Notes: a model not told the origin generated them from the letters alone. A DNA stretch of 64,000 nucleotides from Thermoplasmata archaeon (GCA_034667725.1 JAXDQS010000003.1:320001-384000), one strand, 5' to 3'. Counted from the first letter of the stretch, positions 50,860 to 56,241 are shown. Translations and numbers: made by a program.

Positions 50860-52608
50860 TCACCAAGCGTACACGACGCTCGTGGCCGTGGCGCCCTGGC
50901 CCGACACTGCCGTGAACACGACCTGCGTCCCCTTGGGCGCGTTGACGCTGCGGGCCCAGGTGCCCCAGTCGGTGCGGGGCAGGTCGTAGGCCGTGGCGCC
51001 GACCGTCGCCGTCACCTTGGCGACCGGCTCGCTGGCGGACACGGTGACCTCGACCCACCAGGCGTTGCCCATCCCCTTGGGCGTGAAGGTGGGCGCGAAC
51101 GGCCCGGCCGGCGCGGGCGCGGGCGCGGGCCCGAGCCACGCCATGGGCTCCGACGCCGCGGCCTGGCCTTGGGCGTTGGCCGCCGTGAACGCCATCATGG
51201 TGCCGCGCACGGCGTGGAAGCTCGCGGCCCACGTGCCCCAGCTGGTCTTCGCGAGCGCGTGGACGACGCCGTCCGCGACGGCGTCCACGCGCACGGGGTC
51301 GCCGCCTTGCACCCGGACGTCCACCCACCACTCGTTGGAGCCGGAGGACACGGTGAAGGCGGGCGGCCAGCCCGTCGTGCCGCCCACGGCCACCGTGCCC
51401 GGGCAGGTCCGGGCGAGCAGGCGGTCGGCGCGCACCAGGCCATGGCCGTAGGTGTCGTCGCGGCCGGCGGCCCCCAGGTCCTCGGCGCTTGCCTGCAGGT
51501 GGCCGACGAGGGTCGCGGCGTCGAGCGTGGGCGCGCACGCCAGCGCGAGCGCCACGGCGCCGGCCACGTGCGGCGCGGAGTAGCTGGTGCCGCCGCCGGA
51601 GCCGTAAGCGCTGCCGGGCCGCAGCACGTCGATGTTCACGCCGGGGGCGACGAAGTCGAGCTGCGGGCCGCGGTTCGACCACGACGCCACCGTCTTGCTG
51701 GCGTCCACGGCGCCGATGGCGAGGGCGTTCGGGTCGGAGGCGGGGTACTTGATGCCGACCTGGCCGTTGTTGCCGGAGCCGGCCACGACCACGACGCCGC
51801 GGTCGCGGGCGTACTTGATGGCGGCCGCCGTCGTCGAGTCGCTGGAGGTGGCGGCCAGGCTGAGGTTGATCACCTTGGCACCTTGGTCGGTGGCGTCCGT
51901 GACGGCGCGCGCCACGTTGGCCATCGAGCCGGTGCAGGCGCCCGTCGACGCGTCCCGGGCCGTCACCTTGAGCGGCAGCAGCGTGGCTTGGGCGATGCCG
52001 GCCAGCCCGACGCCGTTGTTGGTGGTCGCCGCCACGATGCCGGCCACCGCGGTGCCGTGGCCGCAGTCGTCCTCCGGCGTGCCGTCGCGGTGGACGTAGT
52101 CGTAGCCGACCAGCACGCGCGACGCCGCCAGATCCGGGTGGGCCCGGTCGAGGCCGGAGTCGATCACCGCCACCTTGACGCTGGCCGCGCCGTAGCCCGC
52201 GCCGCCGTCCCAGGCCGCGGGGACGCCCATCAAGCGCGGCCCGTACTGGTTCGGGTAGCGCGGGTCGTTGGGGGTCGCAAGGGCCTCCGCGACCCCGTCC
52301 GGCTCGGCGTAGCGCACCTCCGGGCGCTCCTGGAGGTCGCGGCGCGCGGCGGCCGGGTCGGCGTCGCGGTCCAGCTCGACCACGACGGCGTCGAGGGCAG
52401 GCAGGGCCGCAACGACGCGGTGGCCGTGCAGCGTGCCGCCCTCGGCCACCATGGCGTGGCGCTGCAGGCCGACCACCAGAAGGGCGGAAGGGGCGTCTGG
52501 GCGGGCCCGGCCTGCGTCGTCCTGGGGATGGACCGCGACCGCGACCAGCGAGGCCGCCAGCAGCATCCCGACCCAGACCGCCCCCTCGCCCCGACGCACA
52601 GCTGCCAT
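50860..52608 (-). CDS. Secreted subtilisin-like S8 protease with duplicated C-terminal Trp-rich domains
   Basis: VAVIDSG, HGTAVAG, GSGNNG, GTSYSAPHVAG catalytic motifs; two N.WW...WGTW repeats. Confidence 0.92.
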   Translation of the reverse strand: MAAVRRGEGAVWVGMLLAASLVAVAVHPQDDAGRARPDAPSALLVVGLQRHAMVAEGGTLHGHRVVAALPALDAVVVELDRDADPAAARRDLQERPEVRYAEPDGVAEALATPNDPRYPNQYGPRLMGVPAAWDGGAGYGAASVKVAVIDSGLDRAHPDLAASRVLVGYDYVHRDGTPEDDCGHGTAVAGIVAATTNNGVGLAGIAQATLLPLKVTARDASTGACTGSMANVARAVTDATDQGAKVINLSLAATSSDSTTAAAIKYARDRGVVVVAGSGNNGQVGIKYPASDPNALAIGAVDASKTVASWSNRGPQLDFVAPGVNIDVLRPGSAYGSGGGTSYSAPHVAGAVALALACAPTLDAATLVGHLQASAEDLGAAGRDDTYGHGLVRADRLLARTCPGTVAVGGTTGWPPAFTVSSGSNEWWVDVRVQGGDPVRVDAVADGVVHALAKTSWGTWAASFHAVRGTMMAFTAANAQGQAAASEPMAWLGPAPAPAPAGPFAPTFTPKGMGNAWWVEVTVSASEPVAKVTATVGATAYDLPRTDWGTWARSVNAPKGTQVVFTAVSGQGATATSVVYAW

Positions 52609-52719
52609 TGGCCCGCCCAGGTCCAAGCCACGCCGCTCCGGGCGGCCGAAGGGTGGCCCCCGGGAAGCCCGGCCGCCTTCGGGATGGGTCCGTGGAACCG
52701 GCGGGTCAGCAGCTCGACG

Positions 52720-53064
52720 GCTCACTCCGTCAAACCGCTTCGATGCCCCTTCCGTCTACGGACGGAAGGCCCGGCGCCGCCCTCCGGGCGTGCCTGCACC
52801 CGAGCGACCACGGTCGCTTCGCTGCGCATCGCTCTCATGAATCGCTCAGGTGCCCCTTCCGGCCTGCGGCCGGAAGGTCCGCCGCGGCCCTTCGGGCCTG
52901 GCTGCATCGAACCGGTCGCCGCCCGTTCGCTTCGCTCACTCCGTCAAACCGCTTCGATGCCCCTTCCGGCCTCACGGCCAGAAGGCCCGGCGCCGCCCTG
53001 CGGGCGTGCCTGCATCGAAGCGACCGCCGTCGCTCGCTCCGCTCGCTTCGTCAAGCCTCTTCGA
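52720..53064 (-). repeat. Tandem array of three 107-bp structured units plus a partial fourth, abutting tRNA-Gly 3' end
   Basis: TGC anchors at 52744, 52851, 52958 and 53065 (exact 107-nt spacing); each unit has conserved hairpins. Confidence 0.9.
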
Positions 53065-53135
53065 TGCACCGTGCGGGATTTGAACCCACGCTGGCGGCTT
53101 GGAAGGCCGAAGTCATACCCCTAGACCAACGGTGC
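53065..53135 (-). tRNA. tRNA-Gly(TCC), no encoded CCA
   Basis: GCACCGT acceptor pairs with ACGGTGC-A; D arm TGGTCTAGGGGTATGA; anticodon arm CGGC-CTTCCAA-GCCG; T loop GGTTCAAATCC. Confidence 0.96.
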
Positions 53136-53181
53136 GCGGGCGGCGCGACTCAAGCGGTCGCCATAAACCACACGGCCGTGC

Positions 53182-55761
53182 TCACGCCTTCTTCTTGGCC
53201 GCCTTCTTGCTTGCGGCCTTGCGGGCGGGGCGCTTCTTGCTGGGCGCGCGGCCCTCCTTCTCGGCCAGCAGGGCCACGGCCTCGTCCATGGTGACGGCGC
53301 CCACGTCCATTCCCTTCGGCAGGGTGGCGTTGGTGTCGCCGTGCTTGAGGTAGGGCCCGAAGCGGCCGTCGAGGATGCGCACGGGCTTGCCGTCGGCGGG
53401 GTGGTCGCCGACCTCGCGCAAGGCCGAGGCGGCAGCGCGTTGGCCGCGACCGCGCTTGGGCTGCGCGAGCAGGGCCAAGGCTTCGTCCAGGCCGATGGTG
53501 CCCAGCTGGGCCGGCGGGATGCTGCGGTACTCCAGCTTGCCGCCGACGTCGTGGGCGATGTAGGGGCCGAAGCGGCCGAGGCCGACGATGACGCGGCCGC
53601 CGTCGGGGTGCTCGCCCAGCTCCTTGGGGAGGCTGAGGAGGAACAGCGCTTCGTCGAGGTCGGCGTTGTCGGGGGTCTTGCCCTTGGGGAGGCTGGCGCG
53701 CTTGGGCTTGCCGTCGGCGGCGTCCTCGATGGTGCCGAGCTGGTAGTAGGGGCCGAAGCGGCCGTCGAGCACGAAGACGCGCAGGCCGGACTCGGGGTCT
53801 TCGCCGACGACTTGGGGGCCTTCCGCCTTCTGCTTCAGCAGGCGCTCGACGGTGGCTTCGTCCAGTTCGTCGGGGGTGACAGCCTCAGGGAGGCTAGCCG
53901 TGAGCTTCTCGCCGTCGCGCTCCACTTCGATGTAGGGGCCGAAGCGGCCGATCTTGACCTTGCAGGGCAGGTCGCCCAAGTCCACTTCGCGGCCTTCGCC
54001 GGGCGGGATCGACTCGAGGCGTTCCTGGATCTGGGCCTGCAGGCCGTCGGGGCCGAGGAAGAACCCGGTGAGGAACGGGACCCATTCGGCCTCGCCGGCG
54101 GCGATGAGGTCGAGCTTTTCCTCCATCTCGGCGGTGAAGGCGAGGTCCACCAGCTTGGGGAAGTGCTTCTCCAGGAGGCCGACGACGGCGAACGCGGTGA
54201 AGGTGGGGACGAGCGCCTTGCCCTTGGAGGCGACGTAGCCGCGGTTCTGGATGGTGTCCAGGATGGCGGCGTAGGTGCTGGGGCGGCCGATGCGCTCCTC
54301 GACGAGGGCCTTGACCAGGCTGGCTTCCGTGTAGCGCGCCGGCGGCTTGGTCTCGTGGCCTTCGGCGGCGACCTCCTTGCATTCCGGCTTGTCGCCTTGC
54401 TTGAGCGGGGGGAGGCTGCCTTCCTCGTCCTCGGTGGCGCCGTAGGCGGCGCGGTGGCCGGCGAAGTCGACGCGCTTGCCGCTGGCGGTGAAGGTGGCGT
54501 CGAGCGCCTGCAGGGTGACGGTCGTGGCGGTGAAGCGCTCGTTGGCCATCTGCGACGCGAGGGTGCGGGCCCAGACGAGGCGGTAGAGCGCCAGGTCGAT
54601 GCCGGCCAGGCCGGTGCGGTCGGGGTGCTGGAACTCGGCGCCGGCGGGGCGGATGGCCTCGTGGGCCTCCTGGGCGCCCTTCTGCTGCTTGCCGGCGTAG
54701 TCGCGCGGCTGCGGGTGCAGATAGTCGGCCCCAAACTCGGCACGCACCGCGGCCGCGGCGCCCTTCTGGCCTTCCTCGCTGAGGGCCGTCGAGTCGGTCC
54801 TCATGTAGGTGATGAACCCGTTCTCGAACAGCCGCTGGGCGGCCTGCATCGCCTGCTTGGCGCTGAGGTTGAGGCGGTTGTTGGCCTCCTGCTGGAGCGT
54901 GCTGGTGACGAACGGCGGCTGCGGGCTGCTCTGGCGCTGGGCCTCCGTGACCTCGGCGACCTTCCACGGCGCCTTCCTGAGGGCGGCCTGGAGCGTCTTG
55001 GCCTGCGCCTCCTCCAGCAGCAGGACGTCCTTGCCGGCGGCGAGCTTGCCCGTGTCGGGGTCGAAGTCCTTGCCGGTGGCCAGCCGCTTGCCGGCAAGGG
55101 CGACCATGCGTGCCTCGAACGGCCCGCCCTTGACGAGGCTCGCGGTGAGGCCCCAGTAGGCGCCGGCGCGGAAGGCGCGGCGCTCGCGCTCGCGCATCAC
55201 CACAAGGCGCACGGCGACCGACTGGACGCGGCCGGCGCTGAGGCCGCCGCCCACCTTCTTCCACAAGAGCGGGGACAGGGCGTAGCCGTAGAGGCGGTCG
55301 AGGATGCGGCGGGTCTCCTGCGCCTGCACCAGGTTGAGGTCCAGTTCGCGCGGCTTGGCGAGCGCCTTCAGCACGGCGTCCTTGGTGATCTCGTTGAAGA
55401 CCATCCGGCGCACGGGCACCTTGGGCTTGAGGGCCTCCACCAGGTGCCAGCTGATGCTCTCGCCCTCGCGGTCCTCGTCGGTGGCCAGGAACAGCTCGTC
55501 GGCGTCCTTCAGCTTGGAGCGCAACTCTCGCAGCACCTTCTCCTTGCCCGGGATGGTGACGTAGTAAGGCTGGAAGCCGTGCTCGATGTCCACGCCGTAG
55601 TCCGCCCACGGCTTGCCCTTGATCTCGGCCGGGATGACCGCCTTGCTGGTGGGCAGGTCGCGGATGTGGCCGACGCACGAGTCGACGACGTAGCCCTTGG
55701 GGAGGTAGCCCTGGATCTTCTTGCTCTTCGTCGGGGATTCCACGATGACGAGTTTGGGCAT
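53182..55761 (-). CDS. topA: DNA topoisomerase I, bacterial type with C-terminal GRFGPY repeats and Lys-rich tail
   Basis: LVIVESPTK, GHIRDL, ATDEDREGE, SAGRVQS, ITYMRTDS, QEAHEAIRP, GRPSTYA; four GRFGPY repeats. Confidence 0.96.
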   Translation of the reverse strand: MPKLVIVESPTKSKKIQGYLPKGYVVDSCVGHIRDLPTSKAVIPAEIKGKPWADYGVDIEHGFQPYYVTIPGKEKVLRELRSKLKDADELFLATDEDREGESISWHLVEALKPKVPVRRMVFNEITKDAVLKALAKPRELDLNLVQAQETRRILDRLYGYALSPLLWKKVGGGLSAGRVQSVAVRLVVMRERERRAFRAGAYWGLTASLVKGGPFEARMVALAGKRLATGKDFDPDTGKLAAGKDVLLLEEAQAKTLQAALRKAPWKVAEVTEAQRQSSPQPPFVTSTLQQEANNRLNLSAKQAMQAAQRLFENGFITYMRTDSTALSEEGQKGAAAAVRAEFGADYLHPQPRDYAGKQQKGAQEAHEAIRPAGAEFQHPDRTGLAGIDLALYRLVWARTLASQMANERFTATTVTLQALDATFTASGKRVDFAGHRAAYGATEDEEGSLPPLKQGDKPECKEVAAEGHETKPPARYTEASLVKALVEERIGRPSTYAAILDTIQNRGYVASKGKALVPTFTAFAVVGLLEKHFPKLVDLAFTAEMEEKLDLIAAGEAEWVPFLTGFFLGPDGLQAQIQERLESIPPGEGREVDLGDLPCKVKIGRFGPYIEVERDGEKLTASLPEAVTPDELDEATVERLLKQKAEGPQVVGEDPESGLRVFVLDGRFGPYYQLGTIEDAADGKPKRASLPKGKTPDNADLDEALFLLSLPKELGEHPDGGRVIVGLGRFGPYIAHDVGGKLEYRSIPPAQLGTIGLDEALALLAQPKRGRGQRAAASALREVGDHPADGKPVRILDGRFGPYLKHGDTNATLPKGMDVGAVTMDEAVALLAEKEGRAPSKKRPARKAASKKAAKKKA

Positions 55762-55830
55762 CCAGGGCTCCGCGGGGTCGGCCGACGCCGGGTGTGCCGG
55801 AAAACCCTTCGCCCGCGGGCCGGCATTGCG

Positions 55831-55849
55831 CACCCCCCGTAGGGGGGTG
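55831..55849. other. GTA-triloop hairpin in topA divergent promoter region
   Basis: CACCCCCC-GTA-GGGGGGTG. Confidence 0.6.
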
Positions 55850-55905
55850 TCGCGTTCGCCGGCGGCTGCCAAGCTTCTTGACGCCCGGGCGGGGTGGGTC
55901 GCGGC

Positions 55906-56241
55906 ATGGCCGAGCAGCTGACCTTGGATGCGATCGAGACCCGCGACATCGCGGAGGACCGGCTGGAGGTCGCCACCGTCCTGCTGGAGGCGGTCTTGGC
56001 GGCCGGCTTTCGAGCGCGGCGGCCCGACCTCGAGCTGGGCCACTTCGAGTTCACCGACGGCCAGGCCAAGGACCACGTGGTCACGGTTGACCTGGTGGCG
56101 TTGGGCCCGAAGGCCACGCGCGCCGTCGTGATGTCGCGCATCCTGTGGGGGCCGAAGCACGCCAACTTCACGAGCGCCCAGCGCAACGGCGACAATGTCC
56201 AGCGCGTCGTGGCCTTGATGGCGCGCTGGCCGAAGGCGTAG
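55906..56241 (+). CDS. Hypothetical protein
   Basis: 111-aa ORF with host-like codon usage, divergent from topA. Confidence 0.65.
   Translation: MAEQLTLDAIETRDIAEDRLEVATVLLEAVLAAGFRARRPDLELGHFEFTDGQAKDHVVTVDLVALGPKATRAVVMSRILWGPKHANFTSAQRNGDNVQRVVALMARWPKA

Follow-up and report, generated by a model that had tools for sequence, protein, structure and literature searches.

Background

The 3' ends of tRNA genes are a classical integration site. They may also be followed by tandem repeats, as in the tyrT operon of E. coli, where the repeats reportedly measure 178 bp and occur 3.14 times, figures said to go back to Egan and Landy in 1978. To our knowledge rtT, the RNA that comes from this operon, is not known behind protein genes. 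It is released from the repeat-containing trailer (bioRxiv 10.1101/2024.07.17.603846). The array described here lies behind a tRNA-Gly gene of a Thermoplasmata archaeon and is made of gene-less hairpin cassettes. It shares with the tyrT trailer a set of about 3.1-3.3 structured tandem repeats behind a tRNA gene, which echo the tRNA 3' end; co-transcription with the tRNA can be listed as a further common feature, but for the archaeal array it is a prediction. There is no sequence or Rfam (RF00391) match between the two, and the archaeal unit, unlike rtT, belongs to a dispersed family.

WHO elements at the yeast FBA1 gene (Coughlan et al. 2020, PMC7282813) dock at the 3' end of a gene and supply a replacement end, as the cassettes do, and the old ends pile up downstream in arrays. 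This pile-up matches the three recoded secY tails found in the present genome. WHO elements are kilobases long and equipped with their own endonuclease; the cassettes measure ~107 nt and contain no gene, and only 3 nt are replaced at tRNA-Gly. By analogy of behaviour, tyrT/rtT (an array behind a tRNA) and WHO (replacement of a gene end) appear to be the closest described systems.

tRNA-targeting integrative elements, cis-mobilisable elements and tycheposons (bioRxiv 10.1101/2020.12.28.424599) also dock at tRNA 3' ends, form tandem arrays and include non-autonomous members. Integrative elements have tRNA-derived att repeats and a tyrosine or serine recombinase with one site specificity, whereas the cassette array has no such repeat and the cassettes have very diverse targets. 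The direct repeats derived from a tRNA 3' end that flank each unit in an att remnant are absent from the array.

REP/BIME repeats with their RAYTs and the miniatures of IS200/IS605 (PATEs) share with the cassettes a small size, a high G+C content, the lack of genes, a hairpin structure and a position behind genes, at times in arrays. In IS200/IS605 elements (IS608), a guide within the element pairs with a short target, and insertion takes place 3' of that target; this pairing resembles the first stem of the cassette, stem I, which reaches over the GCA of the host. The cassettes differ from both groups in that no Y1/HUH gene is found in 32 family genomes and no TnpB gene in their own genome, in pairing with 3-30 nt of the host, and in the long host-end duplications seen at other loci. 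IS200/IS605 elements insert 3' of a fixed short target, in one orientation and without target duplication; tRNA-linked cassettes follow ..GCA(C/T), and copies at protein genes follow unrelated tails and have long tail copies after them. The cassettes do not resemble MITEs, as they have no terminal inverted repeat longer than ~5 nt and a host repeat that is not fixed but ranges from 3 to 66 nt.

Integron attC sites and the attP(+) site of CTXphi likewise conserve hairpin structure over sequence, lie right behind open reading frames and are strand-specific. On reading the units, no attC cores (GTTRRRY/RYYYAAC) are visible, and no IntI gene is seen near the array. Integron gene cassettes are mobile, while the hosts here are fixed core genes.

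The tRNA-Gly(TCC) locus

The window, that is, the whole stretch of DNA analysed, comprises 64,000 nucleotides of a Thermoplasmata archaeon assembly (GCA_034667725.1, JAXDQS010000003.1:320001-384000). tRNA-Gly(TCC) is the sole tRNA in the window and, according to the tRNA list of the genome, the only TCC isoacceptor genome-wide. The surrounding features are as follows.

53182-56160, minus strand: topoisomerase I gene (topA); stop codon 46 nt ahead of tRNA-Gly
53163..53167, minus strand: TTTAT, TATA-box-like, read from the sequence; 32 nt 5' of the tRNA, just past the topA stop
53065..53135, minus strand: tRNA-Gly(TCC), intact (ARAGORN; Rfam tRNA 60.4 bits)
52609..52719, minus strand: spacer from the array to the likely subtilase S8 start codon (52608), from the sequence

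The discriminator base of the tRNA is the A at 53065 and CCA is not encoded; the terminal TGCA is at the same time the foot of stem I in the first unit of the array. Judging from archaeal promoter architecture, TTTAT is probably the tRNA promoter. On the sense strand, runs of T stay below four in length all the way from the tRNA to the subtilase start, hence no canonical archaeal oligo-T terminator; read-through from the tRNA towards the protease gene is therefore likely. The genome is archaeal: it matches the archaeal RNase P model above its threshold, and two TFIIB domains are present.

The topoisomerase I belongs to the bacterial type and carries Toprim_C_rpt repeats as well as a lysine-rich tail. 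Its named relatives include two Thermoplasmatota bins (78% and 53% identity), and the nearest named relative is a Thermoplasmatota metagenome bin; the other best ones are bacterial, at ~50% identity (Actinomycetota, Bdellovibrionota). These similarities suggest that the gene may have passed from bacteria to the archaeon in an old transfer. At the locus of the nearest named relative, tRNA-Gly is absent downstream of topA.

The longest open frame of the subtilase, 50860-52725 on the minus strand, starts at a GTG (52725) inside the array, and a signal-peptide-like N-terminus starts at the ATG at 52608. Since the internal GTG opens a frame into the protease gene, automatic gene calls are likely to overrun the repeat; this frame is an example of how cassette arrays mislead gene callers.

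Structure of the array

The initial annotation described a tandem array of structured units fused to the 3' end of tRNA-Gly. This array is real: three 107-nt units and a 24-nt partial fourth follow the discriminator base. Tandem Repeats Finder reports a period of 108 and 3.3 copies over 52720-53067, with 74% matches. The units had been called exact, which is true of their length; as sequences they are diverged copies with pairwise identities of 81.5% (units 1 and 2), 78.2% (units 1 and 3) and 69.4% (units 2 and 3). The features below are all on the minus strand; bit scores are those of a covariance model, R1.

52958..53064: unit 1, 107 nt, 94.5 bits
53067-53059 (GCATCGAAG, including the tRNA GCA): stem I of unit 1, paired with 53020-53012
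53044-53034: unit 1 apex GAGCGGAGCGA; hairpin B 53006-52994; hairpin C 52985-52962; GGGGCA end 52963-52958
52851..52957: unit 2, 107 nt, 92.6 bits
52960-52948: stem I of unit 2, paired with 52916-52904
52937-52927: unit 2 apex GAGCGAAGCGA; hairpin B 52898-52886; hairpin C 52877-52855; GGGGCA end 52856-52851
52744..52850: unit 3, 107 nt, 82.9 bits
52853-52842 (GCACCTGAGCGA): variant stem I of unit 3, paired with 52807-52796 (TCGCTCGGGTGC)
52827-52814: unit 3 apex region; hairpin B 52790-52778; hairpin C 52769-52748; GGGGCA end 52749-52744
52720..52743: partial fourth unit, 24 nt, matching unit 2 exactly over its first 24 nt; stops within the apex motif (..GGAGTGAGC)

Each unit is a gene-less hairpin cassette with GNA triloops, of a ~105-nt type, directly behind the end of a gene or tRNA. 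Stem I has 9-13 bp, and its 5' arm opens with the GCA of the tRNA or of the preceding unit. The tip of stem I reads GA-GCGNAGC-GA and forms a GNA-triloop mini-hairpin; GCGNAGC is an extraordinarily stable DNA mini-hairpin (PMC13037366), and the GA/GA flanks can form tandem sheared G.A pairs. TGCAG follows directly 3' of the 3' arm. Hairpin B has a 5-bp stem and a GNA triloop; hairpin C has a 9-10-bp stem followed by GGGGCA. With the GGC-A extension, hairpin C amounts to ~12-13 bp followed by an unpaired A.

The motifs reported in the initial annotation (a GCCC-GNA-GGGC hairpin, a CCTTCC..GGAAGG hairpin and GCGNAGC) are all found, and GGGGCA is present at the end of every unit; the echo of the tRNA end GGTGCA is limited to GG-GCA. 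The inverted repeat at the first junction (53011-53020 with 53059-53068) is complementary at 10 of 10 positions and takes in the TGCA of the tRNA. The arms of unit 3 (52796-52807 and 52842-52853) have indeed changed together, with 12 pairs of which 11 are Watson-Crick and one is G.T on the tRNA strand. Three pairs of stem I are altered on both sides between units 1 and 3, a G-C to U-A change in hairpin C of unit 3 is compensated, and the outermost pair of hairpin B is G-C in unit 2 versus C-G in units 1 and 3.

A fold in which the 3' arm of one unit pairs with the 5' arm of the next, in a three-way junction around hairpins B and C, was considered and rejected, since in unit 3 the variant arms find their partners within the unit and not in the neighbouring units; this fixes the fold as the one first drawn.

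The tRNA strand folds at -109.3 kcal/mol (z -6.5 against dinucleotide shuffles) and its complement at -94.4 kcal/mol (z -5.0), a gap of 15 kcal/mol. G.T mismatches in the stems outnumber A.C mismatches by 12 to 7, which is weak as a strand test.

For the proposed alternation of units in the order A-B-A'-B', a mosaic is the better description: the first hairpin of unit 1 resembles that of unit 2, and its two 3' hairpins resemble those of unit 3 (87%). The partial fourth unit is either a truncated copy or the displaced original trailer. The flank of the array reads ..CGTCGAGCTG. Local alignment reveals no significant copy of the tRNA in the units or the distal flank (shuffle p 0.2-0.5), and a 20-nt probe of the tRNA-Gly end finds no copy. 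One candidate for an old, displaced tRNA end distal to the array (~52695-52665) was dismissed as its similarity is not significant.

A family of cassettes

With nhmmer, a profile of the three units recovers only the array and weak noise from its own genome, and no second copy. A search by sequence alone is too insensitive for this element; a covariance model is needed. A regular-expression search for hairpin C was also tried and yields mostly coding noise.

Trailers of the same tRNA in relatives show units with the same plan, and BLAST fragments lead to more copies behind tRNA-Leu, tRNA-Glu and tRNA-Gly(GCC). Alignment A1 contains ten sequences, namely units 1 to 3 and the cassettes behind tRNA-Gly(TCC), tRNA-Leu(TAG), tRNA-Leu(GAG) and tRNA-Glu(TTC) of five other genomes. 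Mean column identity is 67%; GCA, GAGCG, TGCAG, CGAGCGGACC and GGGGCA are shared. The three helices are 90% paired in this alignment; 17 pairs change on both sides, which no shuffle reaches.

R1 recovers the three units of the array at 83-95 bits and gives 38 matches (E<=1e-3) in 15 of the 32 family genomes sampled, which are metagenome bins with a completeness of 65-94%. Two weaker copies are located elsewhere in the genome of the array, behind secY (contig C8) and behind another gene (C11). There are no matches in 120 genomes from nine other families of the class; as far as sampled, the cassette family is confined to one family of uncultured Thermoplasmatota archaea.

The unit is thus not unique to its locus, and covariation extends to every modelled pair. 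Among 36 aligned copies, 93% of cells are paired, each of the 29 modelled pairs has changes on both sides and covariation scores 0.68 versus 0.17 for shuffles (0 of 500 reach it), with 33-44% paired in slid controls; these figures are somewhat inflated, as the 36-copy alignment is fitted to R1, and the MAFFT alignment agreed. Scanning 51500-54500 against Rfam with cmscan (E<=1) returns the tRNA and a 22-bit chance match on the tRNA antisense, and no RtT (RF00391) or other known family. A literature search found no description of such cassettes; the family is apparently undescribed so far.

Many single R1-type cassettes of relatives have a fourth small hairpin, NNNNGCGC-ARCR-GCGCNNNN, directly after GGGGCAC (loci L046, L049, L052, L053, L063, L066 and L070). 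It is absent from the array in the window. A 20-nt motif shared with unit 2, GGAGTGAGCGAAGCGAACG, occurs twice in hairpins near a tRNA-Gly(CCC) (L037) in a genome of lower G+C from another family of the class (G040); the tip motif thus has a wider distribution than the R1-type cassette.

Docking at gene ends

In each of the 14 tRNA-linked R1 matches, the first bases are the final 3-4 nt of a tRNA in the same orientation. These tRNAs represent seven isoacceptors (Gly-TCC, Gly-CCC, Glu-TTC, Leu-GAG, Leu-TAG, Pro-CGG and Arg-TCT). The copies follow ..GCA(C/T) and finish in GGGGCA(C). Every R1 match with readable context is co-oriented with the upstream gene.

Beyond what was initially noted, the family also docks on the ends of protein genes, where stem I is built from the tail of the host gene. 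In copies behind secY and other protein genes, the 5' arm of stem I consists of the last codons and the stop codon at most loci with a traceable frame, and the stop codon lies beside or within the GCGNAGC tip. A second, often degenerate copy of the gene tail comes after hairpin C and GGGG, and is significant at most such loci. The duplicated host segment begins where the 5' arm of stem I begins at no fewer than eight loci. Its length varies by locus between 3 and 66 nt, and the part of the host gene that is paired in stem I measures 3-30 nt.

In the genome of the array, 11 of 47 tRNAs are followed by a 105-135-nt hairpin cassette and then by a copy of the tRNA end. A cassette between two host-tail copies is found at secY, on C11, at C10:395 kb and at these 11 other tRNAs. 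At tRNA-Gly the arrangement is minimal: the repeat comprises GCA, or GCA plus trailer, and nothing else derived from the tRNA. In secY three tails follow one another, each encoding VLRSFFGAE*, with different codons (Ser TCC versus AGC) and three different stop codons. Since they are recoded, these tails must have evolved as working gene ends in other lineages. Related cassettes also occur antisense to a neighbouring gene in this genome (C1:342407, C5:182166/182233, C2:79377 and C3:159924).

Mobile core and turnover

Hairpins B and C form a core with up to 97-98% identity between loci or species, while the first hairpin is locus-specific. In one relative (G019), the cassettes behind tRNA-Leu(GAG) and tRNA-Leu(TAG), on different contigs, are 98.3% identical in B/C and 67% in the first hairpin. 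At secY in two congeners (G017 and G025), identity differs sharply between segments, as follows.

Core (hairpins B and C): 96.5%
secY, third codon positions: 66%
secY, final 30 nt: 70%
Downstream flank of the cassette: 59-65%

Where the secY tail differs synonymously between these congeners, the 3' arm of stem I differs with it. The core has either been copied between loci and species or been strongly selected; the near-identical cores at two tRNA loci within G019 argue for copying.

Behind tRNA-Gly(TCC) itself, relatives have zero to four units of different subtypes. The trailer is empty and opens with a T run in three genomes (G002, G003, G014), contains one R1-type unit in three (G011, G006, G016) and contains units which close in 16-25-nt copies of the tRNA 3' end in another three (G004, G005, G013). 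Further relatives have arrays of other subtypes. The nearest relatives of the units in the window are one another; the array therefore probably expanded locally, either when a neighbouring copy re-docked or through unequal crossing-over.

A scan of metagenomes for the unit-junction pattern gives two matches, both by chance in unrelated contexts, and neither an excised form nor an empty site in a near-identical strain was seen. A look-up of contigs with identical neighbouring proteins gives one JGI contig and one short Logan contig, and a look-up with the S8 protease finds none on record. The JGI contig (Ga0467041_0000264, L044:16250-16477) is identical to the window and stops 38 nt into unit 1. 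Cassette arrays break short-read and metagenome assemblies, with contigs ending inside them. In the present assembly, the 3' end of secY is split between C5 and C8 at a cassette array.

Candidate enzymes

The initial annotation found no integrase near the array, and this is borne out. The sole Phage_integrase match (PF00589) of the genome is weak, at 27 bits, and lies on another contig (C10:27530-28006, plus strand). It is ~150 nt from tRNA-Pro(TGG), within an open frame of 884 aa. Tyrosine recombinases are present in 25 of the 32 family genomes and have no clear link to the cassettes. Many relatives have a strong XerA-like match (113-140 bits), which is not found in the bin of the array.

Y1/HUH transposases (PF01797) are found in 0 of the 32 family genomes, while control genomes respond; a search of the genome of the array finds neither TnpB (PF07282) nor an IS110 DEDD transposase nor a reverse transcriptase. 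As the bins are incomplete (65-94%), absence of an enzyme is weak evidence.

Origin of the array

The array is best read as three diverged tandem copies, plus a 24-nt stump, of a gene-less, non-autonomous ~107-nt DNA cassette which docks at gene ends in a strand-specific manner; the probability of this reading is put at about 0.58. Its basis is the family and its architecture, the positions at which copies dock, cores that are nearly identical from one locus to another, and the lack of the usual transposases. One suggestion of the initial annotation had been a non-autonomous element at tRNA ends; it is supported by the homologues, which follow seven tRNA isoacceptors as well as protein genes and are spread over 15 of the 32 family genomes. 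Repeated insertion of the units is plausible; growth in place through unequal crossing-over is an equally good fit, because each unit has its nearest relatives within the array. Insertion via folded single-stranded DNA is a plausible model, for which the grounds are the DNA-type motifs (GNA triloops, GCGNAGC) and the strand asymmetry.

The anatomy of the cassettes suggests how such an element may work, from a single-stranded intermediate and a host enzyme to the mode of array growth. The cassette would act at the DNA level, strand-specifically, as a folded single strand. Because it encodes nothing, host recombination or repair enzymes are presumed to handle it. Hairpins B and C are the conserved, copyable core, which would be recognised as a fold. 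The first part, A, is locus-specific; it stays complementary to the abutting host end and would present a duplex copy of the target end. Recombination would take place at the foot of the first hairpin; docking is exact at gene ends and leaves them undamaged. Each copy ends in a helix and GCA, like a tRNA acceptor end, and would thereby recreate the docking site, so that arrays could grow by re-docking or unequal crossing-over. The match between the 3' arm of stem I and the host end may reflect selection for pairing, a guide-like requirement for docking, or snap-back copying from the tip of the mini-hairpin; stem-loop extension is documented for Pol theta (PMC11292364).

A more specific form of this reading, with odds somewhat short of even, is a protein-less, homing-like DNA cassette. 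Its mobile part would be the two-hairpin core of ~57 nt, and the first hairpin, carried along or built on arrival, would be a folded copy of the end of the target gene. Host enzymes would recombine it with precision where essential genes and tRNAs end, and in some cases a foreign gene tail would replace the resident one; at tRNA-Gly only GCA would be exchanged, and each copy would regenerate the target. If this is true, an element with no enzyme of its own, whose target is chosen via a hairpin that copies the target's end, would represent a new, harmless way for selfish DNA to live on essential genes, and a route for exchanging the ends of tRNAs and of core genes such as secY between archaeal lineages. 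The tRNA-Gly array is the cleanest small test case, with one intact tRNA, three complete units and no coding constraint.

As a counterpoint to a mobile cassette, the array lacks the long host-end duplication known from other loci. Since its units are also mutual nearest relatives, plain local duplication could have built it; co-orientation, and conservation of B/C beyond that of neutral DNA at secY, would also fit a transcribed and selected RNA element.

Such an RNA element, serving the host, is the main rival; it is unlikely but has several observations in its favour. A co-transcribed array processed into small RNAs had been the other suggestion of the initial annotation. The cassettes would be structured 3' trailers that terminate, stabilise or direct the processing of transcripts, the array would be cut into ~107-nt RNAs at ends which resemble a tRNA minihelix (helix plus GCA), and mobility would be secondary. 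Co-orientation of all readable R1 matches with the upstream gene (including 14 of 14 tRNAs), probable read-through in the absence of a run of four or more T up to the next gene, covariation in all stems, the ~12-13 bp and unpaired A of hairpin C with GGC-A, and the 96.5% conservation of B/C at secY against 66% at synonymous sites are all consistent with this, and the tyrT operon with its released rtT RNA is a precedent (bioRxiv 10.1101/2024.07.17.603846). However, conservation fails at the orthologous tRNA-Gly(TCC), where congeners have zero to four unrelated or different units, and the near-identical cores at two tRNA loci of one genome point to copying and not to vertical constraint. Related cassettes of the same genome are also antisense to a neighbouring gene, and the gene tails that stand displaced, decaying or recoded behind cassettes call for an event at the DNA level. 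In RNA, moreover, stem I would tie up the 3' end of the tRNA.

It is quite improbable that the array arose purely by local tandem duplication of a structured tRNA trailer, through slippage or unequal crossing-over and with no mobility. The units are one another's closest relatives, 3.3 copies with a partial last unit are typical of slippage, and the nhmmer profile finds no further copy in the genome; yet homologues stand behind tRNAs and protein genes in 14 other genomes, two more occur in the same genome (C8 secY and C11), and 69-82% identity with compensated stems is unlike recent slippage. Local duplication is contradicted as the origin of the unit and possible as the mode of array growth.

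Highly improbable, finally, is a stack of fossil att sites, scars of tyrosine-integrase elements that integrated at the tRNA 3' end and decayed time after time, comparable to cis-mobilisable elements or the remnants of tycheposons: the units in G004, G005 and G013 that close in 16-25-nt copies of this same tRNA end and the tyrosine recombinases of 25 of 32 family genomes would fit it, but the array has no tRNA-derived segment beyond GCA, its conserved, covarying three-hairpin content is unlike the interior of a decayed element, the many unrelated protein-gene ends would need as many integrase specificities, and the genome has one weak 27-bit recombinase match on another contig.

Other cassettes in the genome

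Behind tRNA-Leu(CAG), at C5:34589-35000 (plus strand), there are three ~133-nt units, each of which closes with 20 nt copied from the tRNA 3' end, without mismatch in two units and with one mismatch in the third. In these units a conserved ~85 nt alternates with a variable ~47 nt.

A cassette is also located behind the TFB (TFIIB) gene (C1:236150-236420, minus strand). The first tail copy, followed in frame, reads through the cassette without a stop; the cassette may encode an extension of the TFB protein, unless the frame proves to be wrong.

A second cassette type has a ~60-nt core of three hairpins (..GCGGGCGACCCGCGGGGCGCAGCCCCCGG) and occurs at five loci with unrelated flanking duplications of 24-75 nt: C2:79377, C2:110132, C9:788, C10:110838 and the tRNA-Thr(TGT) trailer at C3:192700-192830. 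In one copy of the second type, located in antisense orientation at the 5' end of tRNA-Ser(TGA), the duplication covers the 5' half of the tRNA together with the promoter region.
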